Assembly: GCA_014360895.1 (NCBI GenBank)
Contig: JACIWQ010000005.1
Coordinates: forward strand, 1 to 57,423
DNA: 57,423 nt
From: Thermoflexales bacterium
GTDB taxonomy: Bacteria; Chloroflexota; Anaerolineae; B4-G1; DUEL01
Direction: 5' to 3'
Positions 6,154 to 56,275 of the stretch are shown here, one piece after another. Each line of letters starts with the position of its first letter. Position 1 is the first letter of the stretch. The notes beneath the pieces were generated by a model that was not told the DNA's origin, made no database searches, and saw only the letters and a program-made list of their open reading frames with translations. A program made the position numbers and the translations under genes.

Positions 6154-7839
6154 ATGCCCGTCCATATCCGCCCCCGGCTGACGCTTCTGATACTCCTGCT
6201 GGCGCCCCTGGCCCTGCTCCTCCTCTGGCGCCTGCTGGACGTCCAGGTCGTTCACGGACTCGCGTATCGCCAGCAGGCCGTTCAGGAACGGACGCACAAC
6301 CTGACGCTGCCCGAACCCCCCCGGGGCTCTATCTCCGATGCCCACGGCTTTCCCCTGGCGGTCAGCGTGCCCCGTTACACCATCTGGGCCAGCCCCGCGT
6401 ACATCAAAGACGCCGGGGCAGTGGCCCAAATCCTGTCTCCGGTCCTCCAGGTTCCCGCCGACACCCTGTCCGCGACGATGGCGTATACATCCCAGGGCGT
6501 GATTCTGGCCCCCTATGCCTCCTGGGAGCAGGGAGAAGTCGTCAAGAAGTTGAAACTGGCCGGAGTCTGGGCAACCCTGCGCTGGCGGCGACAATATCCC
6601 CACCAGACCCTGGCCGCCCACCTGTTGGGCTTCACCGCCTACAGCGGGGAAGGGTTCTACGGACTGGAGGGGTATTACGACCGCGCGCTTCGCCCCCAGA
6701 CCGTAGCCCAGGTCGTGGAAACGGACCCCTCTGGCCTGCGGCCGCTCCCCCATGAGGAAGGCCAAGTGCCCACCCCTCAACGGGGCAACCACCTGGTGCT
6801 GACGCTGGACCTGGCCATGCAGATGGCCGCCGAGGAGGAACTGGCCCGCGCCCTGGCGGAGTATCAGGCAGATAGCGGCCTGGTCATCGTGATGGCCCCC
6901 CAGACGGGGGCCATCCTGGCGATGGCCGTCCAGCCGTCCTTTGACCCGAATCAGTACGAAGTGTACATGGATGAGAGGGGGGAGGAAGTTTTCCTGAACC
7001 CGGCCCTCAGCGCCCAGTACGAGCCCGGCTCCATTTTCAAAATTATCACCCTGGCGGGGGCGCTGGATAGCGGCGCGGTCTCCCCGCAGGATACGTATGT
7101 GGATACCGGACAGACAGAGGTCGGCGGACAGGTCATTACGAACTGGGACGGGAAGGCCTACGGGGAGCAGGACCTGGTCGGCCTGATGGGGCACTCCTTG
7201 AACGTGGGGGCGGCCTGGCTGGCGACCAAGATGGGCCCGGAGACGTTCTACCGCTACGTCCGGGCCTTTGGCTTCGGACAGCCCACCGGGGTGGACCTCC
7301 AGGGAGAGGTGGCCGGGACGGTCCATATGCCGGGGGACCTGGACTGGTACGATTCGTACCTGGGGGCCAATGCCTACGGGCAGGGGATCGCGGTGACGCC
7401 GGTGCAGATGGCGGCGGCGGTGGCGGCGGTCGCCAACGGCGGCCACCTGATGCGGCCCTACGTCGTCGCCCGGCAGATTCGGCCCGACGGGTCGGCCCTG
7501 GAATCCCGTCCCGTCGTCCGGGGGCAGCCCATTTCTCCCGAAACGGCGCGGGCCGTCTCGGAGATTCTGGCCCAGGCAGTGGAGGAGTATATGCCCCAGG
7601 CCGCCGTCCCTGGCTACCGGGTCGCCGGGAAGACGGGCACGGCCCAGATTCCGGTCCCCGGCGGCTACGACCCGCGCGGGACCATCGCGTCCTTCGTGGG
7701 CTACGGGCCGGTGGAGGACCCGCACCTGCTGATTCTGGTGCGGCTGGACCGTCCCCGGACCTCGCCCTGGGCCTCCCAGACCGCCGCCGTCGTCTTCCAG
7801 CGACTGGCGACGCGGCTGTTCCCGATGAGCAGGGATTAA
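6154..7839 (+). CDS. ftsI: Class B penicillin-binding protein (FtsI/PBP2B-like)
   Basis: RGSISD, EPGSIFK (SxxK), SLN (SxN), KTGTAQ. Confidence 0.92.
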   Translation: MPVHIRPRLTLLILLLAPLALLLLWRLLDVQVVHGLAYRQQAVQERTHNLTLPEPPRGSISDAHGFPLAVSVPRYTIWASPAYIKDAGAVAQILSPVLQVPADTLSATMAYTSQGVILAPYASWEQGEVVKKLKLAGVWATLRWRRQYPHQTLAAHLLGFTAYSGEGFYGLEGYYDRALRPQTVAQVVETDPSGLRPLPHEEGQVPTPQRGNHLVLTLDLAMQMAAEEELARALAEYQADSGLVIVMAPQTGAILAMAVQPSFDPNQYEVYMDERGEEVFLNPALSAQYEPGSIFKIITLAGALDSGAVSPQDTYVDTGQTEVGGQVITNWDGKAYGEQDLVGLMGHSLNVGAAWLATKMGPETFYRYVRAFGFGQPTGVDLQGEVAGTVHMPGDLDWYDSYLGANAYGQGIAVTPVQMAAAVAAVANGGHLMRPYVVARQIRPDGSALESRPVVRGQPISPETARAVSEILAQAVEEYMPQAAVPGYRVAGKTGTAQIPVPGGYDPRGTIASFVGYGPVEDPHLLILVRLDRPRTSPWASQTAAVVFQRLATRLFPMSRD

Positions 7840-8112
7840 CCGCAGAGCGCGCAGAGGGCGCAAAGGCAAAAAACTTTCTTCGCGTTCTTTGCGTCCTTTG
7901 CGGTTTCAGAGAGATTCACCGCAGAGCGCGCAGAGGGCGCAAAGGCAAAAAACTTTCTTCGCGTTCTTTGCGTCCTTTGCGGTTTCAGAGAGATTCACCG
8001 CAGAGCGCGCAGAGAAGACTTTTGAGTGTGGGACACTGCTTGCAGTTGTCCCACAAAGAGCGCAAAGGGCGCAGGAGTGATTAAATATTTTTTCTTTGCG
8101 TTCTTTGCGGTT
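7839..8112. repeat. 79-bp tandem duplication of a 9-mer-period hairpin (ACCGCAGAGCGCGCAGAG...CTTTGCGTCCTTTGCGGT) plus a degenerate third copy
   Basis: Units start at 7839, 7918 and 7997; the arms are reverse complements of each other. Confidence 0.9.
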
Positions 8113-8148
8113 CCTGAAGAATTCACTGGGGGTTCCGAGAGGTCGCGA

Positions 8149-9565
8149 GATGTTGACGTTGGCGGATGTAGTAGAAGGGTTGACGGGAGTGCGGCCGTCG
8201 GCGCTGGAGCGGCGGCCGACGGAGGTGGTGGTGGACTCCCGGCTGGTCTCGCGGGACGGGCTCTTCGTCGCGCTGCGGGGGGAGCGGGCCGACGGACACG
8301 ACTACGTCCCGGACGCGCTGGCCCGGGGCGCGGCGATGGCGCTGGTCGCGCGGCCGGTGGCGGCCGACGCACCGGTGGTAGACCTGACCGTCTCCCCGCC
8401 CGCGCTGCCGGAGGATTGGGCCTTCCCCGTCCTACTGAAAGTCCCGGACCCGCTGGAGGCACTGCAGCGGCTGGCCGCCTTCTGGCGTCGCCGTCACTCC
8501 CCGCGCGTGGTCGGTATCACCGGCAGCGTGGGGAAAACGTCCACCAAAGAACTGGTCGCCGACGTCCTCTCCCGCCGGTACCGCACCCTGAAGAGCGAGA
8601 AGTCCTACAACAACGAGATCGGCCTGCCCCTGACCCTGCTCCGGCTGACGCCCGACACCGAGCGGGTGGTGCTGGAGATGGGGATGTACGACGTCGGGGA
8701 GATCGCCCACCTGGCCGAGATCGCGCTCCCGCACGTGGGCGTCGTCACCATTATCGGCCCGGTCCACCTGGAGCGGCTGGGAACAATGGAACGCATCGTC
8801 CAGGCCAAGACGGAACTGGTCCAGGCGCTGCCGCCCGCGCCGGAGGGGGTGGCGATCCTCAACTATGACGACCCCAACGTCCTGGGGATGCGCGCGGCCA
8901 CGAAGGCGCGGGTTTTCACCTACGGCCTCTCCCCCGAAGCCGACCTCTGGGCCGACGGCATTGAGGGGCTGGGCCTGGAGGGGGTCCGCTTCCGGCTCCA
9001 CTACCGGGGCGAGACCCTGCACGTCCGCATCCCGCTCCTGGGGCGGCACTCCGTCCACACCGCGCTGCGGGCGGCGGCCGTGGGCATCGTGGAGGGGCTG
9101 ACCTGGCAGGAGATTCTGGAGGGGATGTCGTCGCCGTCGTCGCAGTTGCGGCTGGTGGCGGTGCCCGGCCCGCGCGGCTCCACCATTCTGGACGACACCT
9201 ACAACGCCAGTCCGCCCTCCATGATGGCCGCGCTGAACCTGCTGGACGAACTGGAGGGGCGGAAGATCGCCGTCCTGGGGGACATGCTGGAACTGGGCGA
9301 CTACGAGCGGGAAGGGCACGAGAAGGTGGGCCTGCGGGCGATGGAGGTGGTGGACATCCTCATTACCGTCGGGCCGAGGGGGCGCATCATCGGCGAGACG
9401 GCCCTTCGCTGGGGCATGCCCGCCGACCGGGTCCACATCCTGGAGGACAACTCATCCGCCGTCCGGCTCCTGGAGGGCCTGGTCCAGCCCGGCGACATCA
9501 TCCTGGTCAAGGGCTCCCGCGCGATGCGGATGGAGGAGATTGTCAACGCCCTGAGCCAGGGGTAG
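8149..9565 (+). CDS. murF: UDP-N-acetylmuramoyl-tripeptide--D-Ala-D-Ala ligase
   Basis: DSR..LFVAL.GE..DGH, GITGSVGKTSTKE, SYNNEIGLP, DDTYNASP, LGDMLELG, KGSR; start taken at MLTLAD (ATG about 8149-8152). Confidence 0.93.
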
Positions 9566-9567
9566 CG

Positions 9568-9672
9568 GGAAGCCGGAAGCCGGAAGTGGGAAGTCGGAAG
9601 TAGGAAGTCGGAAGTAGGAAGTAGGAAGCCGGAAGCACGGAATACGCAATACGCAACACGCAACACGTAACG
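9568..9672 (+). repeat. Heptamer arrays: 10x GGAAGNN then 4x AAYACGY
   Basis: Directly visible; fills the whole murF-mraY spacer. Confidence 0.95.
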
Positions 9673-10671
9673 ATGGATTTCGCTCTGATTCTCGCCAGTA
9701 TCTCCTTTCTCCTGACCGTCGGGTGGGGGCCGCTGCTGATCCGGCTGCTGCGCCGCTACGGCATCGGCAAGCGCATCCGCATTGATGGCCCCAGCGGCCA
9801 CCAGGTCAAACTGGGCACGCCCACGATGGGCGGGCTGATGATCGTCGTGCCGGTGCTCCTCATCACCCTGGGGCTGAACATCTACAACCTGATCCAGCGG
9901 AACCTGGTGGGGCGGTCCATTCTGGTCCCGCTGGGGGTGATGCTGATCTACGCCCTCATCGGCGCGGTGGACGACCTGGCGGGCGTGCGCGGGGTCCGGC
10001 AGGGGGAGGGGCTGACGGCCCGTCAGAAGATGGCGGTGGAAATCCTGCTGACCTTCGGGATCGCACTGGTGCTCCACTTCGGCCTGGGCCTGCGCAGCAT
10101 CGCGATCCCGGGGGTCCCGCAGAAAATAGAGATCGGCCTCTTCTACATCCCGGTGGCGATGTTCGTCATCATCGGCGCGTCCAACGCCATGAATTTCACG
10201 GATGGGCTGGACGGGCTGGCGGGCATCATCGCCGCCAGCACCTTTCTGGCCTACGGGGTCATCGCCTACCTGCAGGGGCAGATTTACCTGGTCCGCTTCT
10301 GCTTCACCGTCGTGGGGGCCTGCTTCGCGTTTCTCTGGTACAACGCCCACCCGGCCCAGTTGTTCATGGGCGACACGGGGAGCCTGGCCCTGGGGGCCAC
10401 CCTGGGAGTCGTTGCGCTGATGACCGGTCAGTGGCTGATTCTGCCAGTGGTGGCGCTGGTGCCGGTGGCGGAGGTCCTCTCGGTCATCATCCAGGTCTCG
10501 TACTTCAAGTACACCAAACGGCGCTACGGGCAGGGGCGGCGGGTCTTCAAGATGGCGCCGCTCCACCACCACTTTGAACTCCTGGGCTGGTCGGAGACCC
10601 AGGTCGTCCAGCGGTTCTGGCTGGTCCAGTTGATGGCGGCGATGGCAGGTGTCGCGCTGGCGCTGCTGTAG
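9673..10671 (+). CDS. mraY: Phospho-N-acetylmuramoyl-pentapeptide transferase
   Basis: GTPTMGG, DD, SNAMNFTDGLDGL, FMGDTGS, MAPLHHHFE. Confidence 0.97.
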   Translation: MDFALILASISFLLTVGWGPLLIRLLRRYGIGKRIRIDGPSGHQVKLGTPTMGGLMIVVPVLLITLGLNIYNLIQRNLVGRSILVPLGVMLIYALIGAVDDLAGVRGVRQGEGLTARQKMAVEILLTFGIALVLHFGLGLRSIAIPGVPQKIEIGLFYIPVAMFVIIGASNAMNFTDGLDGLAGIIAASTFLAYGVIAYLQGQIYLVRFCFTVVGACFAFLWYNAHPAQLFMGDTGSLALGATLGVVALMTGQWLILPVVALVPVAEVLSVIIQVSYFKYTKRRYGQGRRVFKMAPLHHHFELLGWSETQVVQRFWLVQLMAAMAGVALALL

Positions 10672-10711
10672 AGACGGGGGTCGGCGCGGAGAATGCGAAG
10701 TTTAGGGTGGA

Positions 10712-10748
10712 TTGCCCATTGTGGCTACCTGATGTATAATGTAGCCAC
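10712..10748 (+). promoter_or_regulatory. TA promoter with palindromic operator
   Basis: TTGCCC (10712-17), 17-bp spacer, TATAAT (10735-40); GTGGCTAC-N12-GTAGCCAC inverted repeat straddles the -10. Confidence 0.75.
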
Positions 10749-10766
10749 GAAATGCGAGGGTGGGCT

Positions 10767-11060
10767 ATGGAATCCGTAGGTGTGCGGGAGTTAAAGAACC
10801 GGTTGGGGTACTACCTGCGGGCGATCCGGCAAGGGAAGAGTTTCGTGGTGACGGACCGGGGGAAGCCCGTGGCCCGGCTGGTGCCGGTGGGGCCGGTTGA
10901 AGAGGGAAGATGGCCGCCGGGCCTGGAGAAGAAGTTGTGGGAACTGGCCGCAGAGGGCCTGCTGGACTGGACAGGCGAGCCCGCGCGGCTTCCGGAGCCG
11001 ATAGCGGTCAATCGGGGACCGGGGCTCCTGAGCGAACTGGTGGTGGAAGGACGGGAATGA
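10767..11060 (+). CDS. Phd/YefM family antitoxin
   Basis: VGVRELKNRLGYYLR...VVTDRGKPVARLVP; ATGA-coupled to the PIN gene. Confidence 0.9.
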   Translation: MESVGVRELKNRLGYYLRAIRQGKSFVVTDRGKPVARLVPVGPVEEGRWPPGLEKKLWELAAEGLLDWTGEPARLPEPIAVNRGPGLLSELVVEGRE

Positions 11061-11497
11061 TCCTCTACGCCGACACCAGCGCGCTGGTCAAGTTGTTCGT
11101 CGCGGAGGAGGGCTCCGATGCAACGCACGACCTGTTCCGGCAGGCTTCGTTGCTGGGAACCAGCGTCCTGGCCCGCGCGGAACTGGAGGCGGCACTGGCC
11201 CGAGCGGTGCGCCGGGGGTTGATTCGGGACGAAGATGGACTGGACGCCCGGCGGAGGCTGGAAATCGTCTGGCCGACGTGGGTCCGTATCGCGGTGGACG
11301 AGCGGTTGGTCGCGCGGGCTGGGGCGCTGGCCTGGGAATATGGCCTGCGGGGATACGACGCCGTCCACCTGGCTGCCGCGCTGGTTTGGCAGGAGCGGAT
11401 AGGGTATCCCGTTGTGGTAGCAACCTTTGACAGCGAATTGGGGGAGGCGGCCCGCCAGGCCAGCTTGGAGGTATGGCCGGCGGCGGGACTCAAATAA
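11057..11497 (+). CDS. vapC: VapC/PIN family toxin
   Basis: YADTSALVKL, LRGYDAVHLAAA, TFD. Confidence 0.9.
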   Translation: MILYADTSALVKLFVAEEGSDATHDLFRQASLLGTSVLARAELEAALARAVRRGLIRDEDGLDARRRLEIVWPTWVRIAVDERLVARAGALAWEYGLRGYDAVHLAAALVWQERIGYPVVVATFDSELGEAARQASLEVWPAAGLK

Positions 11498-11583
11498 AGC
11501 GTCCCATCCAGGCTGACAGCCTGCACTGCGCTATACCGCCGGCCGCCGGGCCCCGGTAGGTCGGTCTCTGGTGGGGGGATAAT

Positions 11584-11612
11584 TTGTCCGGTTCGGGAAA
11601 CGGGTGTATACT
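11584..11612 (+). promoter_or_regulatory. Promoter of the second TA module
   Basis: TTGTCC, 17-bp spacer, TATACT. Confidence 0.55.
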
Positions 11613-11656
11613 GCAGAAAATCCGTCATCACAGAAATGCAGACAAAGGGTGATGCG

Positions 11657-11935
11657 ATGAATGCAACGGTTCAGGTGCGACAGCGAGGGACGTTGACCCT
11701 GCCCGCCGAACTGCGGGAGAAGTACGGCATCCGACCCGGCGATACGTTTCGCCTGGTGGACCTGGACGGGATTTTCGTCCTCACGCCGATGGTGCCGATG
11801 GTGCCGGAACTGGCCCGGGAGATTGAGCGGATGCGGCTGGAGGCCGGGCTGAGCATAGAGGACCTGCTGGCGGGTCTGCGAGAGCAGCGGGAGCGATACT
11901 ACCGGGAAAAATATGCCGCCCGTCAGGCCGTCTAA
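11657..11935 (+). CDS. AbrB/MazE family antitoxin
   Basis: VQVRQRGTLTLPAELREKYGIRPGD. Confidence 0.88.
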   Translation: MNATVQVRQRGTLTLPAELREKYGIRPGDTFRLVDLDGIFVLTPMVPMVPELAREIERMRLEAGLSIEDLLAGLREQRERYYREKYAARQAV

Positions 11936-12368
11936 ACCGCGAGTGTTTGTAGATGCAGACGTTCTCTTCGCCGGGGCAGCGGGGCCGGGCGAGCACGGGG
12001 CCAGCCTGCTGGTCCTGCGGATGGCGGAAATCACGCTGATAGAGGCTCTGACCTCGCAGCAGGCGGTGACGGAGGCGGAGAGGAATCTGGCGGAGAAATT
12101 GCCCCAGGCCCTGCCGGCCTTTCAGATGATTGTCCGCCGTTGCCTGCGGGTGGTCTCGGACCCGGAGCCGGAGGAACTGGAGCCCTACGCGGGCCTGGCC
12201 GACCCTGAGGACTTGCCCATTCTGGTCGCGGCGGTACGGGAAGAGTGTTCCTGGCTGGTGACCTTCAACGTCCGGCACTTCCAGCCCGGACATCCTTCGG
12301 TGACGGTGCTCCGGCCAGGGGAGTTCATCGTCCGGGTCCGGGAGATGCTGGCGATGATGGGGACATAA
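11913..12368 (+). CDS. PIN-domain toxin
   Basis: RVFVDADVLFA, DPEDLPILVAA, LVTFNVRHF. Confidence 0.87.
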   Translation: MPPVRPSKPRVFVDADVLFAGAAGPGEHGASLLVLRMAEITLIEALTSQQAVTEAERNLAEKLPQALPAFQMIVRRCLRVVSDPEPEELEPYAGLADPEDLPILVAAVREECSWLVTFNVRHFQPGHPSVTVLRPGEFIVRVREMLAMMGT

Positions 12369-12389
12369 ACAACGACCCAGGGAGGAACG

Positions 12390-12626
12390 ATGATGACGAC
12401 AAACTCCGGCCTTCTCTGGTTTGACGACAACCCCTATCGGGGGGTCACCGAAAAGGTCCGGCGGGCGGTGGCCCGCTACCAGCAGAAGTACGGGCAGCGC
12501 CCGACGGCCTGCTTTGTCCATCCCAGCCTGCTGGGCGGGAACGGCCACGCCCGACCGATACGGGTCGGCGAGGTGGAAGTCTACCCGTCCCGCGCCGTCC
12601 TGCCCGATCATATCTGGGTGAAATGA
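12390..12626 (+). CDS. Small hypothetical protein (GLLWFDD...YQQKYG..P..C.VHP)
   Basis: GGAGG RBS, host-like codon usage, globular composition. Confidence 0.75.
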   Translation: MMTTNSGLLWFDDNPYRGVTEKVRRAVARYQQKYGQRPTACFVHPSLLGGNGHARPIRVGEVEVYPSRAVLPDHIWVK

Positions 12627-12739
12627 CGGAATACGGAATGACGGAATGGCAAATGACAGAATGACAGAATGACGGAATGACAGAATGACGGAATAACGGA
12701 ATGAGTCAATTCGCGTCTCATCTGCGTTCATCTGCGTCC
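12621..12739 (+). repeat. 8-mer array GAATGAC(G/A), about 10 copies, followed by a 10-mer pair TCATCTGCGT
   Basis: Directly visible; overlaps the upstream stop codon and the murD start. Confidence 0.9.
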
Positions 12740-14158
12740 GATAGTGCGACCCGGGACCTGGACGGGAAGCGGGTGGTGGTGCTGGGGCTGGCCCGGCAGG
12801 GGGTGGCGATGGCCCGCTTCCTGGCCCGCGCGGGCGCCCGGGTCACCGTCTCCGACCTGAAGACGAAGGCGGAACTGGCCGACGCCGTCGCCGCGCTGGC
12901 CGACCTGCCCGTCCGCTATGTGTTGGGCGACCACCCGATGTCGCTCCTGCGGGGGACCGACCTCATCTGCGTGAGCGGCGGGGTGCCGCTGGACATCCCG
13001 CTGCTGGTGGAGGCCCGGAAGAAGGGCATCCCGCTGGTGAGCGACGCGCAGTTGTTCCTGGAGCGCTGCCCCGCGACGGTGGTCGGCATCACCGGCTCCG
13101 CAGGCAAGACGACGACCACCGCGCTGGTGGGGGAGATGTGCCGGGCCGCCGGGCGCCGAACCTGGGTCGGCGGCAACATCGGCAACCCGCTCTTGGACGA
13201 CCTGGAGCACATCGCGCCCGACGACCTGGTGGTGATGGAACTCTCCAGTTTCCAACTGGAACTGGTGACGGTGAGCCCGCCGGTGGCCGCGGTGCTCAAC
13301 ATCACGCCCAACCACCTGGACCGGCACAAGACGATGGAGGCGTACATCGCGGCCAAGCGGCGCATCGTCGCTTTCCAAAAGCCGGAGGATTGGGCCGTCC
13401 TGGGGTTTGACGACGCCAACGCGCGGGCGCTGGCGCTGGAGACGCCGGCCCGGGTGGTCTTCTTCAGCGGCGGGGCGCAGGTGGACCGGGGCGCCTACAA
13501 GACCAACGGCCTGCTGGCCCTGCGACTGGGGGAAGCCGAGGAGGTCATCTGCCGCCGGGAGGAGGTCCGGCTCCGGGGCGACCACAACCTGCTGAACGTC
13601 CTGGCGGCCTGCGCGCTGGCGGGGGTCGTCGGCGTGCCCGTGGAGGCGATGCGGCAGGTCATCCGGACCTTCGCCGGGGTGGAGCACCGGCTGGAGTTCG
13701 TCCGGGAGTGGCGCGGGGTCCAGTGGTACGACGACTCTATCGCCACCGCGCCGGAGCGGGTGGTGGCAGCCCTGCGGTCGTTCAGCGAGCCCATCGTCCT
13801 GCTGGCCGGGGGGCGGGATAAGAAACTGCCCTGGGAGGAGTTCGCGCAGGAGGCCGTGGGGCGAGTCCGCTACCTCATCACCTTCGGCGAGGCCGGGGAG
13901 ATGATTGCGGGCAAGGTGGAAGAGGCGGCGCGGGTCGCTCCGGGACGTCTGGAGGGAATCCAGCGGGTGCGCACGCTGGAGGAGGCGGTAGAGGCCGCTG
14001 CGCGGGTCGCCCGCCCGGGGGACGTGGTGCTCCTCTCCCCCGGCGGGACCAGTTTTGACGCCTTCCGGGACTTCGCCGAGCGCGGCGACCGGTTTAAGGA
14101 ATTGGTGCGGAGTTTAACCGCCGAGGACGCAGAGGGCGCAGAGGAAATAAAGAGGTGA
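12701..14158 (+). CDS. murD: UDP-N-acetylmuramoyl-L-alanine--D-glutamate ligase
   Basis: GITGSAGKTTT, GGNIG, ELSSFQL, NHLDRH, EHRLE, DDSIAT, LLSPGGTSFD. Confidence 0.96.
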   Translation: MSQFASHLRSSASDSATRDLDGKRVVVLGLARQGVAMARFLARAGARVTVSDLKTKAELADAVAALADLPVRYVLGDHPMSLLRGTDLICVSGGVPLDIPLLVEARKKGIPLVSDAQLFLERCPATVVGITGSAGKTTTTALVGEMCRAAGRRTWVGGNIGNPLLDDLEHIAPDDLVVMELSSFQLELVTVSPPVAAVLNITPNHLDRHKTMEAYIAAKRRIVAFQKPEDWAVLGFDDANARALALETPARVVFFSGGAQVDRGAYKTNGLLALRLGEAEEVICRREEVRLRGDHNLLNVLAACALAGVVGVPVEAMRQVIRTFAGVEHRLEFVREWRGVQWYDDSIATAPERVVAALRSFSEPIVLLAGGRDKKLPWEEFAQEAVGRVRYLITFGEAGEMIAGKVEEAARVAPGRLEGIQRVRTLEEAVEAAARVARPGDVVLLSPGGTSFDAFRDFAERGDRFKELVRSLTAEDAEGAEEIKR

Positions 14159-14275
14159 CTCTGCGTTGCTCTGCGCTCTCTGCGGTGAATGAACCGCAAA
14201 GAACACAGAGGGCGCAGAGGAAATGAAATAAAAAAATAAGTTAGAATCTCCGGGTCCTCTGCGCTCTCCGCGGTG
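14116..14275. repeat. Two tandem 9-mer-period hairpins (ACCGC.GAG..CGCAGAG / CTCTGCG..CTC.GCGGT)
   Basis: Same family as 7839; the first arm lies inside the murD 3' end. Confidence 0.88.
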
Positions 14276-14281
14276 AGATAC

Positions 14282-15457
14282 ATGAGAGAGTCGCGTCCAC
14301 CCGATTATCTGCTGATGCTGGCGACGGCCGCCCTGGTCCTGCTGGGGCTGCTGATGGTCTACAGCACGACCTTTGACTGGGGCTACGGCGAGTACGGCGA
14401 TCCGCTCTACTGGCTCAAGCAGCAGGTCCTGTGGCTGGTCATCGGGGCCGCCGTGGCCGTGGTGCTGGCCCGGACGGATTATATGCTCTGGCGGGACTGG
14501 GCGGTGCCCCTCCTGGGCGGGACGCTGGTCCTGCTCCTGCTGGTCCTGGTCGTCGGGCGGCCGCAGTGGGGGGCCCAGCGCTCCCTGTTGGGGGGCTCCG
14601 TCCAGCCGGCGGAACTGGCGAAGGTCGCGACGGTGGTCTACGCGGCCGCGTGGGCCTCGTCCAAAGGGGAGCGCATCCGCGACCTCTCCTACGGCCTGAT
14701 TCCCTTCTCCGTCTGGATGGGGGTGGTGGCGGGACTGGTGGCCCTGCAGCCGGACCTGAGCGCGATGGCCGTCCTGGTCTTTGCCGGGTTCCTGGTCTTC
14801 TTCCTCTCCGGCGCGCACATCGGGCAGTTGTTCGTCGCCGGGCTGATGGGCGCCGTCGTCTTCTGGGGGCTGATTACCGTCTACCCGCACGCGCACGAGC
14901 GGTTTGAGGCCTTCCTGGCCGGGCTGAAGGACCCGTCGCTCCTGCCGTACCACCCGCAGCAGGCCCTCTACGCGCTGGCCAGCGGCGGCCTCTTCGGCGT
15001 GGGCCTGGGGGAGGGACGGGTGAAGTTCTACCTGCCCGCCGCCCACACCGACGCGGTCTTCGCCGTCGTCGGGGAGGAGTTGGGGCTGGTCGGGTGCCTG
15101 CTGGTGGTCGGGCTCTTCGGCGTCCTGGCCTGGCGGGGGTTCCGCATCGCGCTGCGCGCGAAGGACAGTTTCGGCGGACTCCTGGCCGCCGGGCTGACGG
15201 GGCTCCTGGTCTTCCAGGCGTTGCTGAACATGGGCGTCATCGCGTCGCTGCTGCCCTTCACCGGGACCAATCTGCCCTTTATCAGCAAGGGCGGCTCGTC
15301 GCTGGTGAGTTCGCTGGCGGCCGTGGGGCTCCTGGAGAGCGTCGCGCGGGGGCGCCCGCCTCGCCGCTGGAAGGGGGAGGAAACGCAACCGCAAAGAGCG
15401 CAGAGGGCGCAAAAGGAAACCAGAAATTCTTCGCGGTCTTTGCGTCCTTTGCGGTGA
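14282..15457 (+). CDS. ftsW: SEDS peptidoglycan polymerase FtsW
   Basis: QPAELAK, LQPDL, LPAAHTD, GEELG, LLPFTGTNLPFISKGGSS; located between murD and murG. Confidence 0.94.
   Translation: MRESRPPDYLLMLATAALVLLGLLMVYSTTFDWGYGEYGDPLYWLKQQVLWLVIGAAVAVVLARTDYMLWRDWAVPLLGGTLVLLLLVLVVGRPQWGAQRSLLGGSVQPAELAKVATVVYAAAWASSKGERIRDLSYGLIPFSVWMGVVAGLVALQPDLSAMAVLVFAGFLVFFLSGAHIGQLFVAGLMGAVVFWGLITVYPHAHERFEAFLAGLKDPSLLPYHPQQALYALASGGLFGVGLGEGRVKFYLPAAHTDAVFAVVGEELGLVGCLLVVGLFGVLAWRGFRIALRAKDSFGGLLAAGLTGLLVFQALLNMGVIASLLPFTGTNLPFISKGGSSLVSSLAAVGLLESVARGRPPRRWKGEETQPQRAQRAQKETRNSSRSLRPLR
15388..15457. repeat. 9-mer-period hairpin inside the ftsW 3' end
   Basis: ACCGCAAAGAGCGCAGAGGGCGCAAA...TTCGCGGTCTTTGCGTCCTTTGCGGTGA. 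Confidence 0.88.
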
Positions 15458-15470
15458 GTAAGGAAGCGCG

Positions 15471-16580
15471 ATGTTTCTCTGGATAGCCGGAGGGGGGACA
15501 GGCGGGCACGTCTATCCGGGGCTGGCGGTCCTGCAGGCGCTGCAGGGCCGGGGGCCGGTGGAGGTGCTCTACGTCGGCGGCCGGGGGAGCGTGGAGGAGC
15601 GGCTGGTCGCCCAGGCGGGGCTCCCCTTCGCCGGGATTCCGGCCGGGGGCGTGCACGGACTGGCACCCTGGCGGGCCGCAGTCAACCTGATCAAACTGGC
15701 GCGGGGGTTTCTGGAAGCGCTGCGACTGGGCCGTCGGCGCCGGCCGGACGCGCTCTTCGTCACCGGCGGGTACGCCAGCGTGCCCGTCGCGCTGGCGGCG
15801 TGGGCCCTGCGGGTGCCCATTCTGCTCTACCTGCCGGACATTGAGCCCGGGCTGGCGGTGCGGTTCATCGCCCGCCTGGCGACCCGCATCGGGGTCACCG
15901 TGGAGGATTCCCGGGCCTTCCTGCCCGCCCACAAGGTCGTGGTGACGGGCTACCCGGTCCGGCCCGAGTTCGCCGGAATAGACCGGGCGGCGGCCCGGCA
16001 GGCGCTGGGGCTGCCGGAGGGGGAGCTCGTGCTCCTGGTTTTCGGGGGGAGCACCGGGGCCCGGAGCATCAACCAGGCCGTGGTGGAGAATCTGGAGGCA
16101 CTGCTGGAGGCAGCGCACGTGCTCCACGTCACTGGGGAGCGGGACTGGCCGTGGGTGGAAAGTGGCATTCGTAGCGCAAGATTCACCGGACGTCGCTATC
16201 ACCCGTACCCGTACCTGCACGGGGCGGCGATGGGGCAGGCGTTGGCGGCGGCGGACCTGGCCGTCTGCCGGGCGGGAGCGTCCACCCTGGGGGAATTGCC
16301 CTACTTTGGCCTGCCCGCCGTCCTGGTCCCGTACCCATACGCCTGGCGCTACCAGCGGGTGAACGCCCAGTGGCTGGCCTCGCGCGGCGCGGCGGTCGTC
16401 CTGGAGGACGCGCGGCTGAAGGAGGACCTGGTTCCGACGGTGCGGTCGCTTCTGGGAGACCCGGCGCGACTGGCCGAAATGCGGGCCCGCGCGGCGGCCC
16501 TGGCCCATCCCGACGCGGCGGAGAGGCTGGCTGCGATGCTGGTTGAGTTCCAGAAGGACGATGCAAAGGGGGCGGCATGA
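15471..16580 (+). CDS. murG: Lipid I GlcNAc transferase
   Basis: GGGTGGHVYPG, TGGYAS, GGSTGA, RAGASTLGE, QRVNA. Confidence 0.96.
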   Translation: MFLWIAGGGTGGHVYPGLAVLQALQGRGPVEVLYVGGRGSVEERLVAQAGLPFAGIPAGGVHGLAPWRAAVNLIKLARGFLEALRLGRRRRPDALFVTGGYASVPVALAAWALRVPILLYLPDIEPGLAVRFIARLATRIGVTVEDSRAFLPAHKVVVTGYPVRPEFAGIDRAAARQALGLPEGELVLLVFGGSTGARSINQAVVENLEALLEAAHVLHVTGERDWPWVESGIRSARFTGRRYHPYPYLHGAAMGQALAAADLAVCRAGASTLGELPYFGLPAVLVPYPYAWRYQRVNAQWLASRGAAVVLEDARLKEDLVPTVRSLLGDPARLAEMRARAAALAHPDAAERLAAMLVEFQKDDAKGAA

Positions 16581-17143
16581 TCCCGCTCAACACCTTTTTC
16601 TGGATGGTTGTCCTGATGTTCGGCCTTATCGGCGCGCTGCGGGGGTGGGTGCGGGAGTTGCTGGTCACCCTGGCCATTATCTCTGCCTACTTCCTGCGCT
16701 GGCTTTTCCTGAACATCATTCCGTTTGTCCGGGAGTACCTGAGAGACCGCTCGCCCATAGACCAGTTCTACATTTTCAGCGCGCTCTTCGTCATTATGGC
16801 TCTCTTCGGCTACGCCGGGCCGGTGATGTCGCCCTACCTGGCTGGAAAGGCGCGGCGGGAAAAGATTCAGGACCTGCTTCTGGGGTTCATCGTCGGCGCC
16901 GCCAACGGCTACCTGCTGGCGGGCACGATATGGGGGTTTCTGCACGCGGCCAACTATGGCCTTCCCCCGGACCTCCCACCGGAGATGTTGCAGCAGATGT
17001 CAGGGGTCTGGGGTATCCGCTTCCCGGACCCCGAGGTAGTTCGGTTCGCCGAAACATTCCTCCCTCACGCCTGGATGAGCGACACCATAATGCTCATCCT
17101 GACCGGGGCGACGCTGATTACGGTGTTGGTGGTGCTGCTATAG
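16577..17143 (+). CDS. CvpA-like membrane protein
   Basis: G..RGWVRELL motif, D.LLGFIVGA.NG, several TM helices. Confidence 0.65.
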   Translation: MIPLNTFFWMVVLMFGLIGALRGWVRELLVTLAIISAYFLRWLFLNIIPFVREYLRDRSPIDQFYIFSALFVIMALFGYAGPVMSPYLAGKARREKIQDLLLGFIVGAANGYLLAGTIWGFLHAANYGLPPDLPPEMLQQMSGVWGIRFPDPEVVRFAETFLPHAWMSDTIMLILTGATLITVLVVLL

Positions 17144-17157
17144 GGGAGGGTAAACCG

Positions 17158-18336: not shown

Positions 18337-18339
18337 GGG

Positions 18340-18912
18340 ATGTGTCGGCTGGCCGACTATTGTATCTACGACTCCGCGGAACGCTCTACTTATTCTGCAG
18401 AAGATAGCTCTTTGTCCATTACTGTCCAAAAGGATGAACGACTTCTGGTGTATGACCTGGAGACCTATCTGGGCAAACGTCCAATCAAAAGGCCAGACCT
18501 CCTGCTGATTGGCCGGGTCGGAGAAGGGCCCTGGATTGTCGTGCTGATGGAAACCAAGAGCGGAACGGGCTGGGAAAAGGCGATAAAACAATTCCGCGAA
18601 GTTCTGCCTGCATTAGGAAAAGGCGGAGAGGAGGGCGGGGAACAACACCATCAGGAATGCGCTGACCGACTCCCTCTGGGTAGAGACCACAGGGTGGTCG
18701 CTGTGGTGCTTGGTCAGGTGGGGAAAGAATACAGAAAGTCCCTGCAGCCGGGTGGGTTCGGAGACCGAAGGAGAAAGCAAATTCGCGATATCTCTTGGAG
18801 AGGCAAGCCTGTACCGGTGGTCCCGCCAATGTCGGGAAAATCGTTTCGCTCGCTCAGGCAGTTCTGGATTCAGTTGGGCGTTCTCCCACGCTCCGGGTCA
18901 ACAGCGCGATGA
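18340..18912 (+). CDS. Hypothetical protein, PD-(D/E)xK nuclease-like
   Basis: KRPDLLLI...VLMETKSG; begins 3 nt after the ATPase; its stop overlaps the murC start. Confidence 0.65.
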   Translation: MCRLADYCIYDSAERSTYSAEDSSLSITVQKDERLLVYDLETYLGKRPIKRPDLLLIGRVGEGPWIVVLMETKSGTGWEKAIKQFREVLPALGKGGEEGGEQHHQECADRLPLGRDHRVVAVVLGQVGKEYRKSLQPGGFGDRRRKQIRDISWRGKPVPVVPPMSGKSFRSLRQFWIQLGVLPRSGSTAR

Positions 18913-20414: not shown

Positions 20415-20435
20415 TGGGAAGCGGGGGAGGTGCCG

Positions 20436-44204: not shown

Positions 44205-44237
44205 CCACAGACAGCGGACAACAGTGATCCGTTCCGA

Positions 44238-44505
44238 GGGGGTCATTGCGAGCCGCCGAAGGGGGCGAAGCAATCCCCCCGTCGCATTGTGGGGATTGCT
44301 TCGGGCACTCCGTGCCCTCGCAATGACCCCGTGGCCGTCATTGCGAGCCGCCGAAGGGGGCGAAGGGCCACTCCGAAGGCCATGGCCCGAGAGGCCTCGC
44401 CTCGTGGGGCTCGCCCGAGGCGCAATCCCCCGGTGCTTCTGGGGATTGCCACCACGCTCTGCTCGTGGCAGGCTTTCGGGCGCTGCGTGCCCTCGCAATG
44501 ACCCC
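44238..44505. repeat. Two tandem REP-like palindromes GTCATTGCGAG...GCAATC / GATTGC...CTCGCAATGAC
   Basis: Elements at 44238-44330 and 44337-44505 with identical 5' arms. Confidence 0.9.
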
Positions 44506-44532
44506 ATCAATATCCATTAAGGAAGGAGTCCG

Positions 44533-45621: not shown

Positions 45622-45719
45622 AGATTTTATCGGAAATAGCGCCAGGTGGCGCAGTACGTATCTTTAAGGGAAATCTGCGCTCGTCCGCGTTCATCCGCGT
45701 CCTATTTCCGATGAAGTTT
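45622..45719. mobile_element. Putative MITE (copy 2, inverted relative to copy 1)
   Basis: AGATTTTATCGGAAATAG...CTATTTCCGATGAAGTTT; 48 contiguous identical nt with copy 1. Confidence 0.75.
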
Positions 45720-48043: not shown

Positions 48044-48063
48044 GACACGGATTGGCTATCTGA

Positions 48064-48346
48064 CAGCTGCTTCGCCCGGCGGTGAACTGCGAAGCCCCTT
48101 CGGGGGCTTTGGGATAGCCCGAGGGGCCTCGCCCCGTGGAGCTTTGCATCCTGAGCCCGACTGTTTTGCGACTTGAAAAATGAATCCGGCAATCTGCCGT
48201 TTTTCGCCCTCACCCCTCCCCTTGCCTCGGGCGAGCGATGTCATCGCGAGCGGAGCGAAGCGACCTCGGCGTGGCCCTCCCGCTCGCCTGCTTCGCTTGC
48301 AGTGACATTCTTCGGCGGCGGGCGAGGGGAGGGGAAATGGGTGGGG
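48064..48346. repeat. Mosaic of nested REP-like palindromes
   Basis: CCCCTCCCCTTGCC (48213) / GGCGAGGGGAGGGG (48321) enclosing an ATGTCA..GCGAG / CTTGCAGTGACAT element; upstream modules shared with 38562 and 44385. Confidence 0.7.
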
Positions 48347-48374
48347 GTTTGGTGCCCTACCAGAAAGGAGCCCA

Positions 48375-52064: not shown

Positions 52065-52088
52065 AACCCATTGTCGGGATGCTGGAGG

Positions 52089-52150
52089 TGGGAGCAGAGG
52101 GCGGAGAGAGCACGGCCCCCTCCGCTCCTCCGCCCCTCCGTTCCCCTGCT
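52089..52150. repeat. 8-mer-family hairpin between convergent genes, possible terminator
   Basis: GGGAGCAGAGGGCGGAGAGAGC...CTCCGCTCCTCCGCCCCTCCGTTCCCCTGCTC. Confidence 0.6.
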
Positions 52151-54092: not shown

Positions 54093-56078
54093 TCAGTCGT
54101 TCCGCAGCACCAGCGGGAGGTAGACCCACGCGATGTACTCATCCGCCCCGATGTCGTAGCCTGCGCCGATAGGGCGCGGGTCGCCATCTATGTCGGCGGT
54201 CAGCCAAGGGATAGCGATGCCAGCATTTACAGCCGGTGAGCCCGCGCGCAGGTGATAATTCCCTGCTGCCGGATCCAGAAACAGCGGGTTGCGCCCGGTG
54301 ATAGCGTGAGTGCTGGTAATCGGAGCGCCGCCCCCCGTGTCGTAACCGTTTCCGAAGAAAAGCGTGTAATCCGCTACAGCACTGTTCCCCGCATCAGGCC
54401 AGGCTGTGATGCCACAAGCAGTGTGACTGACGATGATGTTGTTGGTGAGAGTGAGCGAAGAGTTCTGCCTCAACTCCACCCCCGAAGAGTCGTTCTGAAC
54501 GATGGTGTTGTGGACCAGCAGTCCCTGAGAGGGATCAGGGGAGGCCCAGCAATACACTCCACTCCCTGAGTTATGGGCGATAAAGTTGTTGGTGGCGGTA
54601 AAGAACGCGCTATTAGCGGTGGACAGGGCCCCACCGTGAAGAGCGTGATTGCCGATGATGATGTTGCTGTCCACCGTGGCCCCGCTGTAGAAGAGGTGCA
54701 GTCCTCCGCCGAAACCATAGCCATTGGCAGCAGCCCGGTTCCCGCGAATCACGTTGCTGGTGATCAGGGCATTGCTTTCATATCCATACCGAAGGTGAAG
54801 GCCGCCGCCATAGCTGTTAACGTTGAAACCAGCGGTGTTGCTCATGATGGTATTGTGAGAGACAAGGAGATTAGCACTACTGGTGCTTAGGAAAAGACCA
54901 CCACCGTATCCCTCGCCAGCAGCATTGGCCGTGTTGCTGACGATCAGGTTGCCGCCGATTACGCTGCCACTGCAACCCCAAAGGGCGATACCACCGCCGT
55001 AGCCATAGTGGTCGGTCCCCGTATAAGCGACGTTGTTTGTGATGACATTGGCGGAAATGATAGGAGAGGAATTCTCGCAGAAAATGCCGCCCCCGGATCC
55101 GGAACGGTTCAGGCTGGCAGCGGACGCGTTGTGGCCGTAGATCAGGTTGCTGTAGATCCACGGGCTGCTATTTCCCTCCACGTGAATACCCCGCCCGTTA
55201 AAGGCGATGGTGTTGGAGATGACGACCGGCATTGCGCCGTGGGCAATGTGAATGCCATAGAATTTGTTGCCCAGCAACTGGCCCACGGTGCCCATTAAAC
55301 CGATCCGGTTATTGCGAATCTCGCCGCTCCCCACATAGTCCATCGCCACCCCGCTCCAGCCATTGCTGGCGATCCAGTTGCCGGTAATCACATTACCGCC
55401 CCCATACCAGACACTGACTCCATGCCAGCCGTTGCCCATTCCCCCAAAGCCCTGCGGACAGGTACCGATATAGTTGGCCGCCACGGTATTGCTGGTCGTT
55501 GTGCTCCCCGTAATCAACACTCCGTGCTGGCCGTTGCCCCAAATGATGTTACTTTGGTGGGTTCCGGCTCCACCAATGACGTTGTTCCGCGCGCCACCGT
55601 ACAGGTAGACGCCATGCTGAGCAAACTCTCTAATTTCCAGCCCGTAGATGGCGCAGTTAGAGGCGGTAATCACCAGGCCGCTGAACGTGCCGGAAGTACC
55701 CCTCAGTCGGACACCAGGGCCAACGTACGCAGGGCTCTCCTGCCACCAATCGCTCCCGTCAATCACTGTGCCGTTGTCGGTGAGGGCAGGTAGCGGTGTG
55801 GTGGGCGTGATCCACATGGGGCCGCTGAACTTGATGGTCTGTGATCCAGAGCAGGCGTTGGCTTCCTGGATGGCGGCGCGCAGAGTGCATTTACCGCCCA
55901 ATGTGCGGCATGTGCAGTTCCCCGGATGCTCGTCTATCTCGTCCTCTGAAGTATCTACAATAAATATCTCGCCGCCCGCTGCCCGGGCCACGGGTGACCG
56001 GCTCAGGGTCAGCAATCCCAACACCAGGGCCAGGAACAGCCCGGCCAGCCCGATGCTCAACCAGAGCCTGAGTCTCAT
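54093..56078 (-). CDS. Secreted right-handed beta-helix protein, CSLREA-type N-terminus, choice-of-anchor-Q-like end and VYLPLVLR tail
   Basis: CTLRAAIQEAN; GGG/N-rich beta-helix repeats; YHL..GSPAVNAG, DIDGDPRP..YDIGADE. Confidence 0.85.
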   Translation of the reverse strand: MRLRLWLSIGLAGLFLALVLGLLTLSRSPVARAAGGEIFIVDTSEDEIDEHPGNCTCRTLGGKCTLRAAIQEANACSGSQTIKFSGPMWITPTTPLPALTDNGTVIDGSDWWQESPAYVGPGVRLRGTSGTFSGLVITASNCAIYGLEIREFAQHGVYLYGGARNNVIGGAGTHQSNIIWGNGQHGVLITGSTTTSNTVAANYIGTCPQGFGGMGNGWHGVSVWYGGGNVITGNWIASNGWSGVAMDYVGSGEIRNNRIGLMGTVGQLLGNKFYGIHIAHGAMPVVISNTIAFNGRGIHVEGNSSPWIYSNLIYGHNASAASLNRSGSGGGIFCENSSPIISANVITNNVAYTGTDHYGYGGGIALWGCSGSVIGGNLIVSNTANAAGEGYGGGLFLSTSSANLLVSHNTIMSNTAGFNVNSYGGGLHLRYGYESNALITSNVIRGNRAAANGYGFGGGLHLFYSGATVDSNIIIGNHALHGGALSTANSAFFTATNNFIAHNSGSGVYCWASPDPSQGLLVHNTIVQNDSSGVELRQNSSLTLTNNIIVSHTACGITAWPDAGNSAVADYTLFFGNGYDTGGGAPITSTHAITGRNPLFLDPAAGNYHLRAGSPAVNAGIAIPWLTADIDGDPRPIGAGYDIGADEYIAWVYLPLVLRND

Positions 56079-56092
56079 CACCCACCTCCTGC

Positions 56093-56160
56093 CGCGTATC
56101 GCGTATCGCGTATCGCATATCGCTTATCGCCTATCGCTTATTGCCCATCGCTGATCGCTG
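56093..56160. repeat. Heptamer array ATCGCNT, about 9 copies
   Basis: Directly visible; a short related tract is at 53951-53975. Confidence 0.92.
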
Positions 56161-56192
56161 GATCACATCGGTCCATACGCCCTCCTTCCCTG

Positions 56193-56275
56193 CTCACGTT
56201 TCACTCTTCACGTTTCACTCTTCACGCTTCACTCCTCACGTTTCACTCTTCACGCTTCACTCCTCACGTTTCACT
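56193..56275. repeat. Alternating heptamer array (14-bp period) YTCACGY-TTCACTC
   Basis: Directly visible; reverse-strand relative of the 20354 array. Confidence 0.92.

Follow-up and report, generated by a model that had tools for sequence, protein, structure and literature searches.

We examined a 57,423-nt stretch of DNA from a Thermoflexales bacterium (GenBank assembly GCA_014360895.1, contig JACIWQ010000005.1; hereafter the window, to which all positions given without a contig name refer), focusing on the short-period tandem arrays and hairpins at its gene junctions and on two families of small genes that such repeats flank, those encoding GxxExxY (PDDEXK_3) nucleases and those encoding PF05635 four-helix-bundle proteins of the S23p/Avd family. 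The window is contig C208 of a 262-contig draft genome (G000; 3.57 Mb, 64.6% G+C, 96% complete), and its 6-29 kb region holds the division and cell-wall (dcw) cluster, comprising genes for an ftsI-like penicillin-binding protein (PBP), murE, mraY, murD, ftsW, murG, cvpA, murC, murB, ddl, ftsQ, ftsA, and ftsZ. Two antitoxin-PIN pairs, an AAA_15/21 ATPase gene and its partner, an opposite-strand PIN gene, a GxxExxY nuclease gene, and a Schlafen/AlbA_2 gene interrupt the cluster, and arrays and hairpins account for nearly all of the spacer DNA between the dcw genes.

An earlier note on this DNA had listed repeat units of 7 to 10 nt at about 20 junctions, and Tandem Repeats Finder (TRF) recovered all of these units at the places named, with about 20 junctions involved. 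At the start of the cluster, a 79-nt unit, each copy of which is one CGCAGAGNG-type hairpin of the nonamer family F9, is repeated 2.3 times in tandem from the stop codon (7839) of the ftsI-like PBP gene (7834-8014; z -6.0), and a further F9-type hairpin found by TRF lies upstream of murE (8054-8111; z -4.2); TRF reports the period-9 unit CGCAGAGGG across 7841-8109. Ten copies of GGAAGNN run from the murE stop codon on the plus strand (9566-9635; TRF span 9564-9642), followed by five plus-strand copies of AAYACGY that extend up to the mraY start codon (9636-9671). A plus-strand array of 10.6 GAATGACR units, grown from an ATGA stop/start overlap, occupies 12622-12704, and beyond it TRF and comparison with congeners identify a solo arm of 2.5 ATCTGCGTYC units, from a 10-mer family, in right-arm orientation (12713-12738). 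Two F9 hairpins lie at the end of murD, the first with a left arm that encodes the end of the gene and a loop that holds its stop codon (14119-14184, also the period-9 TRF span; z -6.4), and the second with a long AT-rich loop (14193-14276; z -3.6), while another F9 hairpin lies within the 3' end of ftsW (15388-15455; TRF span 15390-15413; z -5.8). A TGAAACG-type array of 8-10 units begins at the murC stop codon on the plus strand (20354-20423), and a solo F9 right arm detected by TRF lies just upstream of murB (21324-21349).

The junction between murB and ddl holds a complete cassette. TRF and inspection of the flanks place a five-unit left arm of the decamer GAACGCGGAT (family F10) across the murB stop codon (22264-22315; TRF span 22267-22315), followed by the plus-strand nuclease gene, which has a GTG start and encodes 149 aa (22342-22791), and by a complete F10 hairpin that closes the cassette before ddl (22739-22811; z -6.2). 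The left arm of this hairpin (22739-22768) lies in the tail of the open reading frame (ORF) and the right arm at 22782-22811 (TRF span 22780-22799), so that, as the earlier note had stated, a single repeat family brackets the GxxExxY gene, with one arm preceding it and a full hairpin that overlaps and follows its 3' end. In murD (14119-14158), ftsW (15388-15457), murB (22264-22286), and the nuclease gene (22739-22791), the final codons and the stop codon belong to repeat arms, and arm insertions have therefore rewritten the C-termini of the corresponding proteins.

Downstream of this cassette, a purine-rich array of the GGGAGCAG-type octamer lies on the plus strand between ddl and the Schlafen/AlbA_2 gene (23941-23995), and at the ftsA/ftsZ junction TRF places a solo F10 right arm (27888-27915) beyond a GAATCAAAA-type array (27835-27876). 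Arms of ACACRAAG (family F8) at 30163-30310 (TRF span 30166-30233; z -5.6) form a short hairpin (30163-30192) and a nested hairpin (30207-30310) whose loop is made of six TTAATTG units (30240-30282), and a ACACAAAG-type hairpin extends across the rimM stop codon (43047-43112; ACACRAAG in TRF at 43047-43077; z -5.4). At the far end of the window are two minus-strand arrays, one of 9.6 GCGATAN units (ATCGCNT on the plus strand; 56093-56159) upstream of the gene at 54093-56060, and one of 11 TGAARNG units (TTCACNY on the plus strand; 56194-56275), found by TRF directly after the stop of the gene at 56274-57422. Three-unit inverted arms around AT-rich loops, which had been ascribed to all of the 8- to 10-mers, are formed by ACACRAAG, CGCAGAGGG, and GAACGCGGAT, but not by GAATGACR or GGGAGCAG, which form long one-way arrays. 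Tandem doubles, solo arms, and nested forms had also been described, and all are present, as a tandem double (7834-8014), solo arms (12713-12738, 21324-21349, and 27888-27915), and a nested form (30207-30310). When eight window hairpins were folded, z ranged from -3.6 to -6.4, and for none of them did any of 200 shuffled sequences fold as well.

The product of the window nuclease gene matched PF13366 (PDDEXK_3; E 2e-38) and TIGR04256 (GxxExxY; E 8e-37). Residues D71, E81, and K83 are invariant among 22 sequences, as are the G, E, and Y of the GxxExxY motif, and the retained D...ExK residues, together with the Pfam and NCBIfam matches, place the protein in the PD-(D/E)XK superfamily. An AlphaFold2 (AF2) model was confident (pLDDT 86.7), and the closest folds were those of Cas4, lambda-type exonucleases, and Hjc resolvases, with modest TMq values of 0.4-0.5; a sequence search of the PDB with the nuclease returned no match. 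All six PDDEXK_3 genes of G000 adjoin multi-unit arms belonging to six different families, and these six are the 8-10-mer arm families of the genome. For comparison, we used genomes of relatives (G001-G012 and others) and a genus set of 14 genomes, with gene positions outside the window taken from a rough codon-usage gene caller. A PDDEXK_3 gene was present in 13 of the 14 genus genomes. Flanks were judged by eye for 33 genus copies: arms of a single family lie on both sides of 25 and on one side of six (three of these being cut by a contig end), while two divergent copies lack arms. Each arm family corresponds to one supported clade of the protein tree, and sister nuclease clades have units one base apart (ACGCAGAT/ACGCGGAT, CACGGATT/CACGAATT, and CACGAAGA/CACAAAGA). 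Matches to the CACGAATT arm numbered 82, 74, and 43 in three genomes with the cognate gene and 1-11 in seven others, and for GAACGCGGAT the counts were 180, 121, 113, and 29 where the cognate gene is present (four genomes) and 12-127 in the remaining genomes. The association between arm copy number and presence of the cognate gene is thus positive but loose.

A search for inverted repeats among stand-alone arms led to a second kind of gene, consisting of small genes between inverted heptamer or octamer arrays whose products resemble the proteins of 23S rRNA intervening sequences (IVSs). G000 contains seven PF05635 genes, and these are exactly the seven array-bracketed genes, each with its own unit (TAGTCGG, GGAGTAG, GTCGCAN, CAGAATGA, AAGTGGGC, AATACGG, and TGAAACG/TGAAAAG). 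In an unbiased scan of 2607 genes for inverted similarity between 160-nt flanks, six of the seven ranked 1, 4, 5, 6, 7, and 10; the arrays of the seventh lie outside flanks of that length. Among 726 genes of 90-220 aa, only five have inverted arrays of the same unit on both flanks, and all five are PF05635 genes. The family is found in 13 of the 14 genus genomes, and 67 of its genes (7 from G000 and 60 from congeners) were examined. A strict automatic test detected inverted same-unit arrays on both flanks of 39 of these, and arrays are present on both sides of 51 and on at least one side of 63. On a tree of 62 PF05635 proteins, 19 unit groups required 20 changes, compared to 43-48 in ten shuffles, and the one extra change reflects single-linkage labelling, which merged two units. 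The array upstream of a PF05635 gene usually presents its purine-rich, Shine-Dalgarno-like strand. These results bear out the suggestion of the earlier note that the repeats are tied to GxxExxY and four-helix-bundle genes, as both carry inverted same-family flanks with one unit per gene clade.

Each heptamer or octamer family of the window, that is, GGAAGNN, AAYACGY, TGAAACG/TTCACNY, TTAATTG, ATCGCNT, GAATGACR, and GGGAGCAG, has a cognate clade of four-helix-bundle genes in the genus. GGAAGNN is the unit of the GGGAGTA/GGAAGTA clade, AAYACGY that of the AAYACGG clade (represented in G000 by a gene on contig C197), GGGAGCAG that of the GGAGCGGA clade, and ATCGCNT that of an ATCGCGT/GCGATAC clade of congeners; the cognate genes of GAATGACR and TGAAACG lie on contigs C205 and C21. 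For TTAATTG, ATCGCNT, and GGGAGCAG, no cognate gene was found within G000 itself.

Across G000, TRF returned 288, 102, 117, and 72 rows of period 7, 8, 9, and 10, respectively. The period-7 rows are mostly intergenic (258 of 288, vs 30 of 201 period-12 rows) in a genome that is 83% coding, and arrays of period 7-10 occupy 356 of 2675 junctions (approximately 13%). The tendency of arrays to start at or across a stop codon, noticed earlier in the window, extends to the whole genome, where 122 of 444 arrays between same-strand genes begin between -10 and +5 nt of the upstream stop; a further feature is that 43 arrays end 0-5 nt before the next start codon. A small number of units predominate, among them two forms of TGAAACG, with 61 and 28 TRF arrays. 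Searches for inverted arms yielded 154 matches for the 10-mer and 134 for the 8-mer, compared to 1 and 2 with reversed-unit controls, while the 9-mer search was noisy (288 vs 141 for the reversed control). Neighbouring arrays belonged to the same family in 34 cases, whereas 200 permutations averaged 18.7 such cases and never exceeded 32.

We then compared orthologous junctions between relatives, and both the empty and the filled alleles anticipated by the earlier note were found. The dcw backbone is conserved over 16 relatives, and its inserts vary. Between the PBP gene and murE, the spacer in four genomes of other genera is 20-50 nt long and free of repeats, a single hairpin is present in G011 and several in the window, while G003/G006, G005/G001, and G007 hold PDDEXK_3 genes of three different clades, each with its own arms. 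The murD-ftsW junction is occupied in the window by two CGCAGAG hairpins and in G011 and G004 by a PDDEXK_3 gene with F9 arms on either side; elsewhere it is a short spacer or carries another family. The full murB-ddl cassette of the window is shared with G006, G011, and G001; in G003 the gene between the arms is truncated, in G002 a gene-less multi-arm hairpin retains the first codons in its loop, G005 and G012 carry other families, and two outgroups have nothing. Assembled contigs of sequencing runs X3 and X4, which hold a relative, join position 22256 to 22823 with 108 other letters between them, and this is an allele without the window nuclease cassette. Regions lacking coverage, runs holding only a small share (with their habitat labels), and the many joints linking repeat arrays from separate junctions were left out of the evidence. 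Among genomes whose MraY proteins are 91-96% identical, the murE-mraY junction can be as short as 12-13 nt, including a Shine-Dalgarno motif, or hold two arrays whose family varies.

Arrays also change in length at a fixed place. At the junction preceding murD, congeners form a series of 1, 2, 3, 4, 7, and 10 units of GAATGACR that begins with an ATGA stop/start overlap, and at the murC stop codon G012 has six TGAAACG units, G003 a proto-array, and G002 none. Some gene clades occupy more than one locus, the locus counts per clade being upper bounds owing to contig ends, and at one locus common to two sister four-helix-bundle clades the units differ on both sides. The comparisons document turnover of junctions, decay of a cassette to a hairpin, and growth of arrays in place, and we hold these structural and comparative points, along with the architecture of the cassettes and the assignment of one unit per gene clade, with high confidence. 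In practical terms, the elements break assemblies, and within one genus they remodel the junctions between essential genes of an operon and modify the ends of genes.

Based on the data presented above, we consider it probable that most of the junction repeats represent copies, lacking the gene, of small selfish intergenic cassettes of two kinds, each encoding a protein that binds its own unit. The first kind would consist of a GxxExxY (PDDEXK_3) gene between inverted arms of about three (2-9) tandem units of 8-10 nt, and the second of a PF05635 four-helix-bundle gene between inverted arrays of 7-8 nt units. The encoded protein would recognize its own repeated unit, and cutting by the nuclease at or near the arms could lead to the copying of arm-gene-arm units, or of arms alone, into new junctions, in a form of spread resembling homing or that of REPINs, the paired form of repetitive extragenic palindromes (REPs), with their REP-associated tyrosine transposases (RAYTs). 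Loss of the ORF would leave hairpins resembling miniature inverted-repeat transposable elements (MITEs), slippage would then expand or contract the copies, and junctions would be the places that tolerate insertions of this sort. If the arms pair within the transcript, in the manner of 23S rRNA IVSs, RNase III may also excise the cassette from an operon mRNA; G000 has an RNase III gene, so IVS-like processing is possible. This gene, at C90:16026-16400, is itself enclosed, with its upstream neighbour, by inverted TGAAACG-type arrays (C90:14906-16723). Our confidence in protein-driven recognition and spread, which the sequence comparisons suggest, is moderate.

Several observations weigh against this reading. 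Of the 303 long arrays in G000, 252 are solo, with no same-family partner within 2.5 kb, and a cassette model alone does not account for them; where same-family arrays do flank a gene of any kind, they are direct in 22 cases and inverted in 12. The GAATGACR array grew in place from local sequence, and slippage alone therefore makes some arrays. Some genomes have many arms without a gene: four incomplete genomes (G004, G007, G009, and G010) have CACGAATT matches that number, in descending order, 60, 31, 26, and 24, with no cognate gene found, and in G002 (97% complete, approximately 30 contigs) neither a PDDEXK_3 nor a PF05635 gene was found, yet 42 F10 arm matches are present, alongside few TGAAACG arrays (5). 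The four-helix-bundle protein has none of the nuclease motifs tested. Across phyla, the unit does not track overall protein similarity, the TGAAACG-flanked gene of an Acidobacteriota MAG being of another, short type and a Nostoc gene with GGGAGTA arrays being nearer to the TAGYCGK clade. Among 60 hairpins, 21 fold better in the sense and 28 in the antisense orientation, with 11 equal, and sense-strand mismatches comprise 42 G.U and 60 A.C; neither a G.U excess nor a sense-fold advantage is seen, so selection acting on an RNA stem is not evident. Finally, we infer recognition from the co-variation of unit and protein, and kin share labels.

Part of this evidence is what one would expect if the arrays were passive simple-sequence repeats made by slippage from local seeds, with the small genes merely carrying or landing in them, no recognition by any protein, and gene-less arrays that owe the genes nothing. 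The solo long arrays, the stepwise growth of GAATGACR and the TGAAACG proto-form at the murC stop in G003, the arms that persist in G002 without the genes, and the loose cross-phylum match between protein and unit all accord with such an origin, and heptamers are reported as the commonest class of long repeat in prokaryotes (Mrazek 2007, as cited in PMC4679880). Local seeding by slippage should, however, produce a different, unrelated unit at every locus, whereas a few units recur at tens of loci (the TGAAACG forms above being the clearest case), and triple TGAAACG occurs in 31 of 41 relatives against 0 matches for the reversed control. Moreover, the recurring units are the gene-flanking units, inverted same-unit flanks are confined to PF05635 among the 726 small genes, sister clades at one locus differ in their units on both sides, and same-family neighbours exceed every permutation, so we judge a wholly passive origin unlikely. 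An alternative in which host selection maintains the arrays and hairpins as cis elements for translation start, processing, stability, or attenuation, bound by four-helix-bundle or GxxExxY regulators, as proposed for TAACTGA, would explain why arrays abut codons, with 122 of 444 starting at a stop and 43 ending 0-5 nt before the next start, and why the upstream array usually shows its Shine-Dalgarno-like strand. Regulatory effects of heptamer repeats have been reported in Nostoc (bioRxiv 10.1101/2022.06.06.494920), and a mobile repeat-binding protein has been proposed (PMC4679880). A conserved regulatory role is nevertheless hard to reconcile with essential dcw junctions that differ wholly among congeners with 91-96% identical MraY, with TGAAACG arrays that run 29 in the same and 24 in the opposite orientation relative to transcription, and with hairpins free of sense-strand pairing bias, and we regard this alternative as rather improbable.

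The hairpins are stable, lie at gene ends, and are alike on both strands, as would hold for plain intrinsic terminators or mRNA-stabilizing structures with no link to small genes, but they do not fit the terminator consensus of GC-rich stem, short loop, and U-run, several stand inside the operon between essential genes, and gene-specific arm families would go unexplained. A consensus terminator scan of 7500-27400 found 12 sites, compared to 12.9 in shuffled sequences; none is a full F8, F9, or F10 hairpin, and one minus-strand site (15403-15389) falls within the left arm of the 15388-15455 hairpin. We consider this explanation very improbable. We give the least credence, close to none, to a true REP/RAYT system or an integron, even though G000 has two Y1_Tnp (PF01797) genes and the window a tyrosine recombinase gene (29274-30161), as the former are flanked by GC-rich palindromes other than the arm and array families, and the latter has no cassette array adjoining it. 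Instead of forming an array beside an integrase, as integron cassettes do next to intI/attI, the cassettes are dispersed through the genome: the six PDDEXK_3 and seven PF05635 genes lie on 12 contigs (two on C197). The integron-like part of the earlier proposal is thus abandoned, while the REP/RAYT-like part stands to the extent that the repeats are tied to small genes in that manner, the cognate genes being PF13366 and PF05635 rather than PF01797. The Y1_Tnp genes themselves, at C50:7078-7413 and C21:209-553, lie in open frames of 181-186 aa, and the C50 copy sits amid repeated GC-rich palindromes that may represent a separate, genuine REP/RAYT system in G000. DUF559 and GIY-YIG domains, which had also been named as possible neighbours of the repeats, were rejected as cargo, since each occurs in G000 only inside one large ORF. 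Bracketing of toxin-antitoxin (TA) genes was not seen in the window, where each TA module has promoter-like sites of its own and lacks flanking arrays; the only bracketed example seen is an NTase/HEPN-like pair on contig C201.

The reading of the junction repeats as gene-cognate selfish cassettes can be set beside several known systems. Cyanobacterial short tandemly repeated repetitive sequences (STRRs) are early-described intergenic heptamer arrays, and REP/REPIN elements are short dispersed intergenic palindromes tied to a RAYT gene, encoding a Y1 HUH transposase, that is flanked by inverted copies. With the latter, the G000 system shares many dispersed intergenic palindromes, one family per gene lineage with inverted copies at the gene, and copy numbers that tend to be high where the gene is present, but its proteins are PD-(D/E)XK and four-helix-bundle rather than HUH Y1, its arms are built of tandem sub-repeats, and one of its kinds consists mostly of one-way arrays. 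With 23S rRNA IVSs, it shares a PF05635 ORF in the loop of a stem formed by inverted, stem-capable flanks (7 of 7 genes in G000 and 39 of 67 in the genus), tandem heptamers adjoining the ORF, and decay; it differs in that all cassettes examined lie between protein-coding genes rather than at helix 25 or 45 of 23S rRNA, its arms consist of long tandem arrays whose units recur in hundreds of gene-less arrays, there is also a nuclease-encoding kind, and no RNA-level pairing bias is apparent. The system is therefore both REP/RAYT-like and IVS-like, with different proteins, and not integron-like, and it is neither REP/RAYT nor rRNA IVS by definition, because no Y1 transposase lies at the cassettes and their location is outside rRNA. 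The arrays fit the description of STRRs, of long simple sequence repeats (LSSRs), and of TAACTGA repeats in being tandem units of 5-11 nt, mostly a few specific heptamers, between genes, often against start codons and patchy across phyla, but reports of those repeats name no gene, whereas here the gene clade flanked by each unit provides candidate binding proteins. As in MITEs, internal deletion of a gene-bearing element has yielded a gene-less form with the same terminal inverted repeats, at one locus (murB-ddl in G003 and G002), but no known transposase family is involved and the arms multiply in tandem. The accessory protein Avd of diversity-generating retroelements (DGRs) belongs to the same four-helix-bundle family, PF05635 being described as similar to Avd (PMC10053308), but no RVT_1 gene was found in G000, at 96% completeness, and no template/variable repeat is evident. 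A reverse-transcriptase origin, whether DGR or telomerase-like, was rejected for G000, as the lack of an RVT_1 gene makes a retro-element origin there unlikely.

Previous work has touched on several of these components. The IVS of Coxiella is described as selfish and as carrying an S23p ORF; heptameric repeats of variable number adjoin this ORF, an RNase III site is located at the first repeat, and RNase III excises the element. An older idea that the IVS ORF serves mobility is cited in the same source (PMC4990558). IVSs with an S23p ORF in Coxiella, Leptospira, and others show decay of the ORF and ORF-less forms, and are held to be selfish and horizontally acquired, with obscure mobility (PMC4990558; bioRxiv 10.1101/2024.02.27.582315). 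The family 23S_rRNA_IVP is called "functionally uncharacterized" (bioRxiv 10.1101/2024.02.27.582315), and the function entry for PDDEXK_3 is "Unknown" (PMC3424549). For heptamer arrays, PMC4679880 describes the TAACTGA repeats of Beggiatoaceae, reviews heptamer abundance, and proposes a mobile binding protein, naming none, and the Nostoc study calls for identification of the binding protein (bioRxiv 10.1101/2022.06.06.494920); according to these two papers, neither a mechanism nor a binding protein had been found for intergenic heptamer arrays. A literature search of partial coverage, with supplements excluded, returned no general gene-repeat link beyond the single Coxiella IVS, and prior description is possible.

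A broader proposal, which we advance tentatively and consider possible rather than probable, is that four-helix-bundle and GxxExxY proteins are sequence-specific binders of their own arms, with the nucleases also acting as mobilizers, and that they and their arms define a widespread, hitherto undescribed class of selfish junction elements. In that case, the heptamer arrays (STRR, TAACTGA) would be gene-less copies of these elements, as would many of the REP-like hairpins found in Chloroflexota-like bacteria, in cyanobacteria, and in other phyla; rRNA IVSs would represent a special case, and gene-cognate cassettes may explain the long-puzzling heptamer repeats of bacteria. The link between unit and clade supplies concrete protein-DNA pairs, could join the three puzzles of heptamer repeats, rRNA intervening sequences, and multi-copy small genes, and bears on two large families of small proteins with no assigned role, PDDEXK_3 and 23S_rRNA_IVP.

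Beyond the genus, exact runs of four TGAAACG units were found in at least 119 stretches of the genome collection, 63 of them in Chloroflexota records and the remainder in ten other named phyla or in records with no phylum. In a phylum sample of 151 genomes, PF05635 was present in 45, a tally that includes the unpublished genome G185, whose locus L182 was left out of all analyses, and PF13366 was present in 29. With one locus tested per genome, 11 of 28 four-helix-bundle loci passed the strict inverted test and 27 of 28 had an array on at least one side, and the inverted flanks of PDDEXK_3 loci exceeded shuffled sequences in 20 of 28. A Verrucomicrobiota metagenome-assembled genome (MAG) and an FCB-group MAG each have a four-helix-bundle gene between TGAAACG arrays, and an Acidobacteriota MAG has a different type of short gene with TGAAACG arrays in reverse polarity. 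Among plasmids, 25 records, mostly from cyanobacteria, match the four-helix-bundle family. The neighbours of eight plasmid genes that we inspected include nrdB/nrdA, cas6/cas4, and cas10/cmr3; four of the eight have clear inverted arrays (one of GGGAGTA, as in a genus clade), one has direct and one weak arrays, and the two identical copies from Nostoc PCC 7120 have a downstream array only. At loci L290 and L293, on cyanobacterial plasmids, the four-helix-bundle genes are embedded in CRISPR-Cas operons, with cas6 and cas4 as neighbours in one case and cas10 and cmr3 in the other, and this position may explain the listing of the family as cas-associated.

The window contains several further features. 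No Rfam family matched it at gathering thresholds. Immediately 3' of the TGAAACG array lies a small basic ORF (20425-20560; approximately 60 codons), missed by the codon-usage caller, that is kept in all five genus genomes compared. A dispersed element of approximately 95 nt, with terminal inverted repeats of about 18 nt, one F10 arm, and a second small stem, is present on the plus strand at 38446-38545 and in the opposite orientation at 45625-45719 (F10 arms in TRF at 38465-38492 and 45673-45700). Its genome-wide copies occupy dozens of G000 junctions, and many apparently solo ten-mer arms are in fact this element. TRF also identified an inverted pair, GGAG-rich and CCTCCGC-rich, between convergent genes (52084-52146). 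The defence-like inserts of the dcw cluster, at 10782-12368, 17158-18912, 20580-21179, and 24012-25682, comprise Phd-PIN, MazE-PIN, the AAA_15/21 ATPase with a 190-aa partner of no assigned family, the PIN gene, and the Schlafen/AlbA_2 gene, which is lower in G+C; some congeners have these inserts and others do not. Three copies of a 20-nt AT-rich unit that differs from the other repeat families follow the stop codon of the Schlafen/AlbA_2 gene (25682-25739). An additional GC-rich family with the inverted motifs GTCATTGCGAG...CTCGCAATGAC fills the junctions at 29004-29273, 44205-44556, and 48044-48374, and also occurs between the PBP gene and murE in G012.

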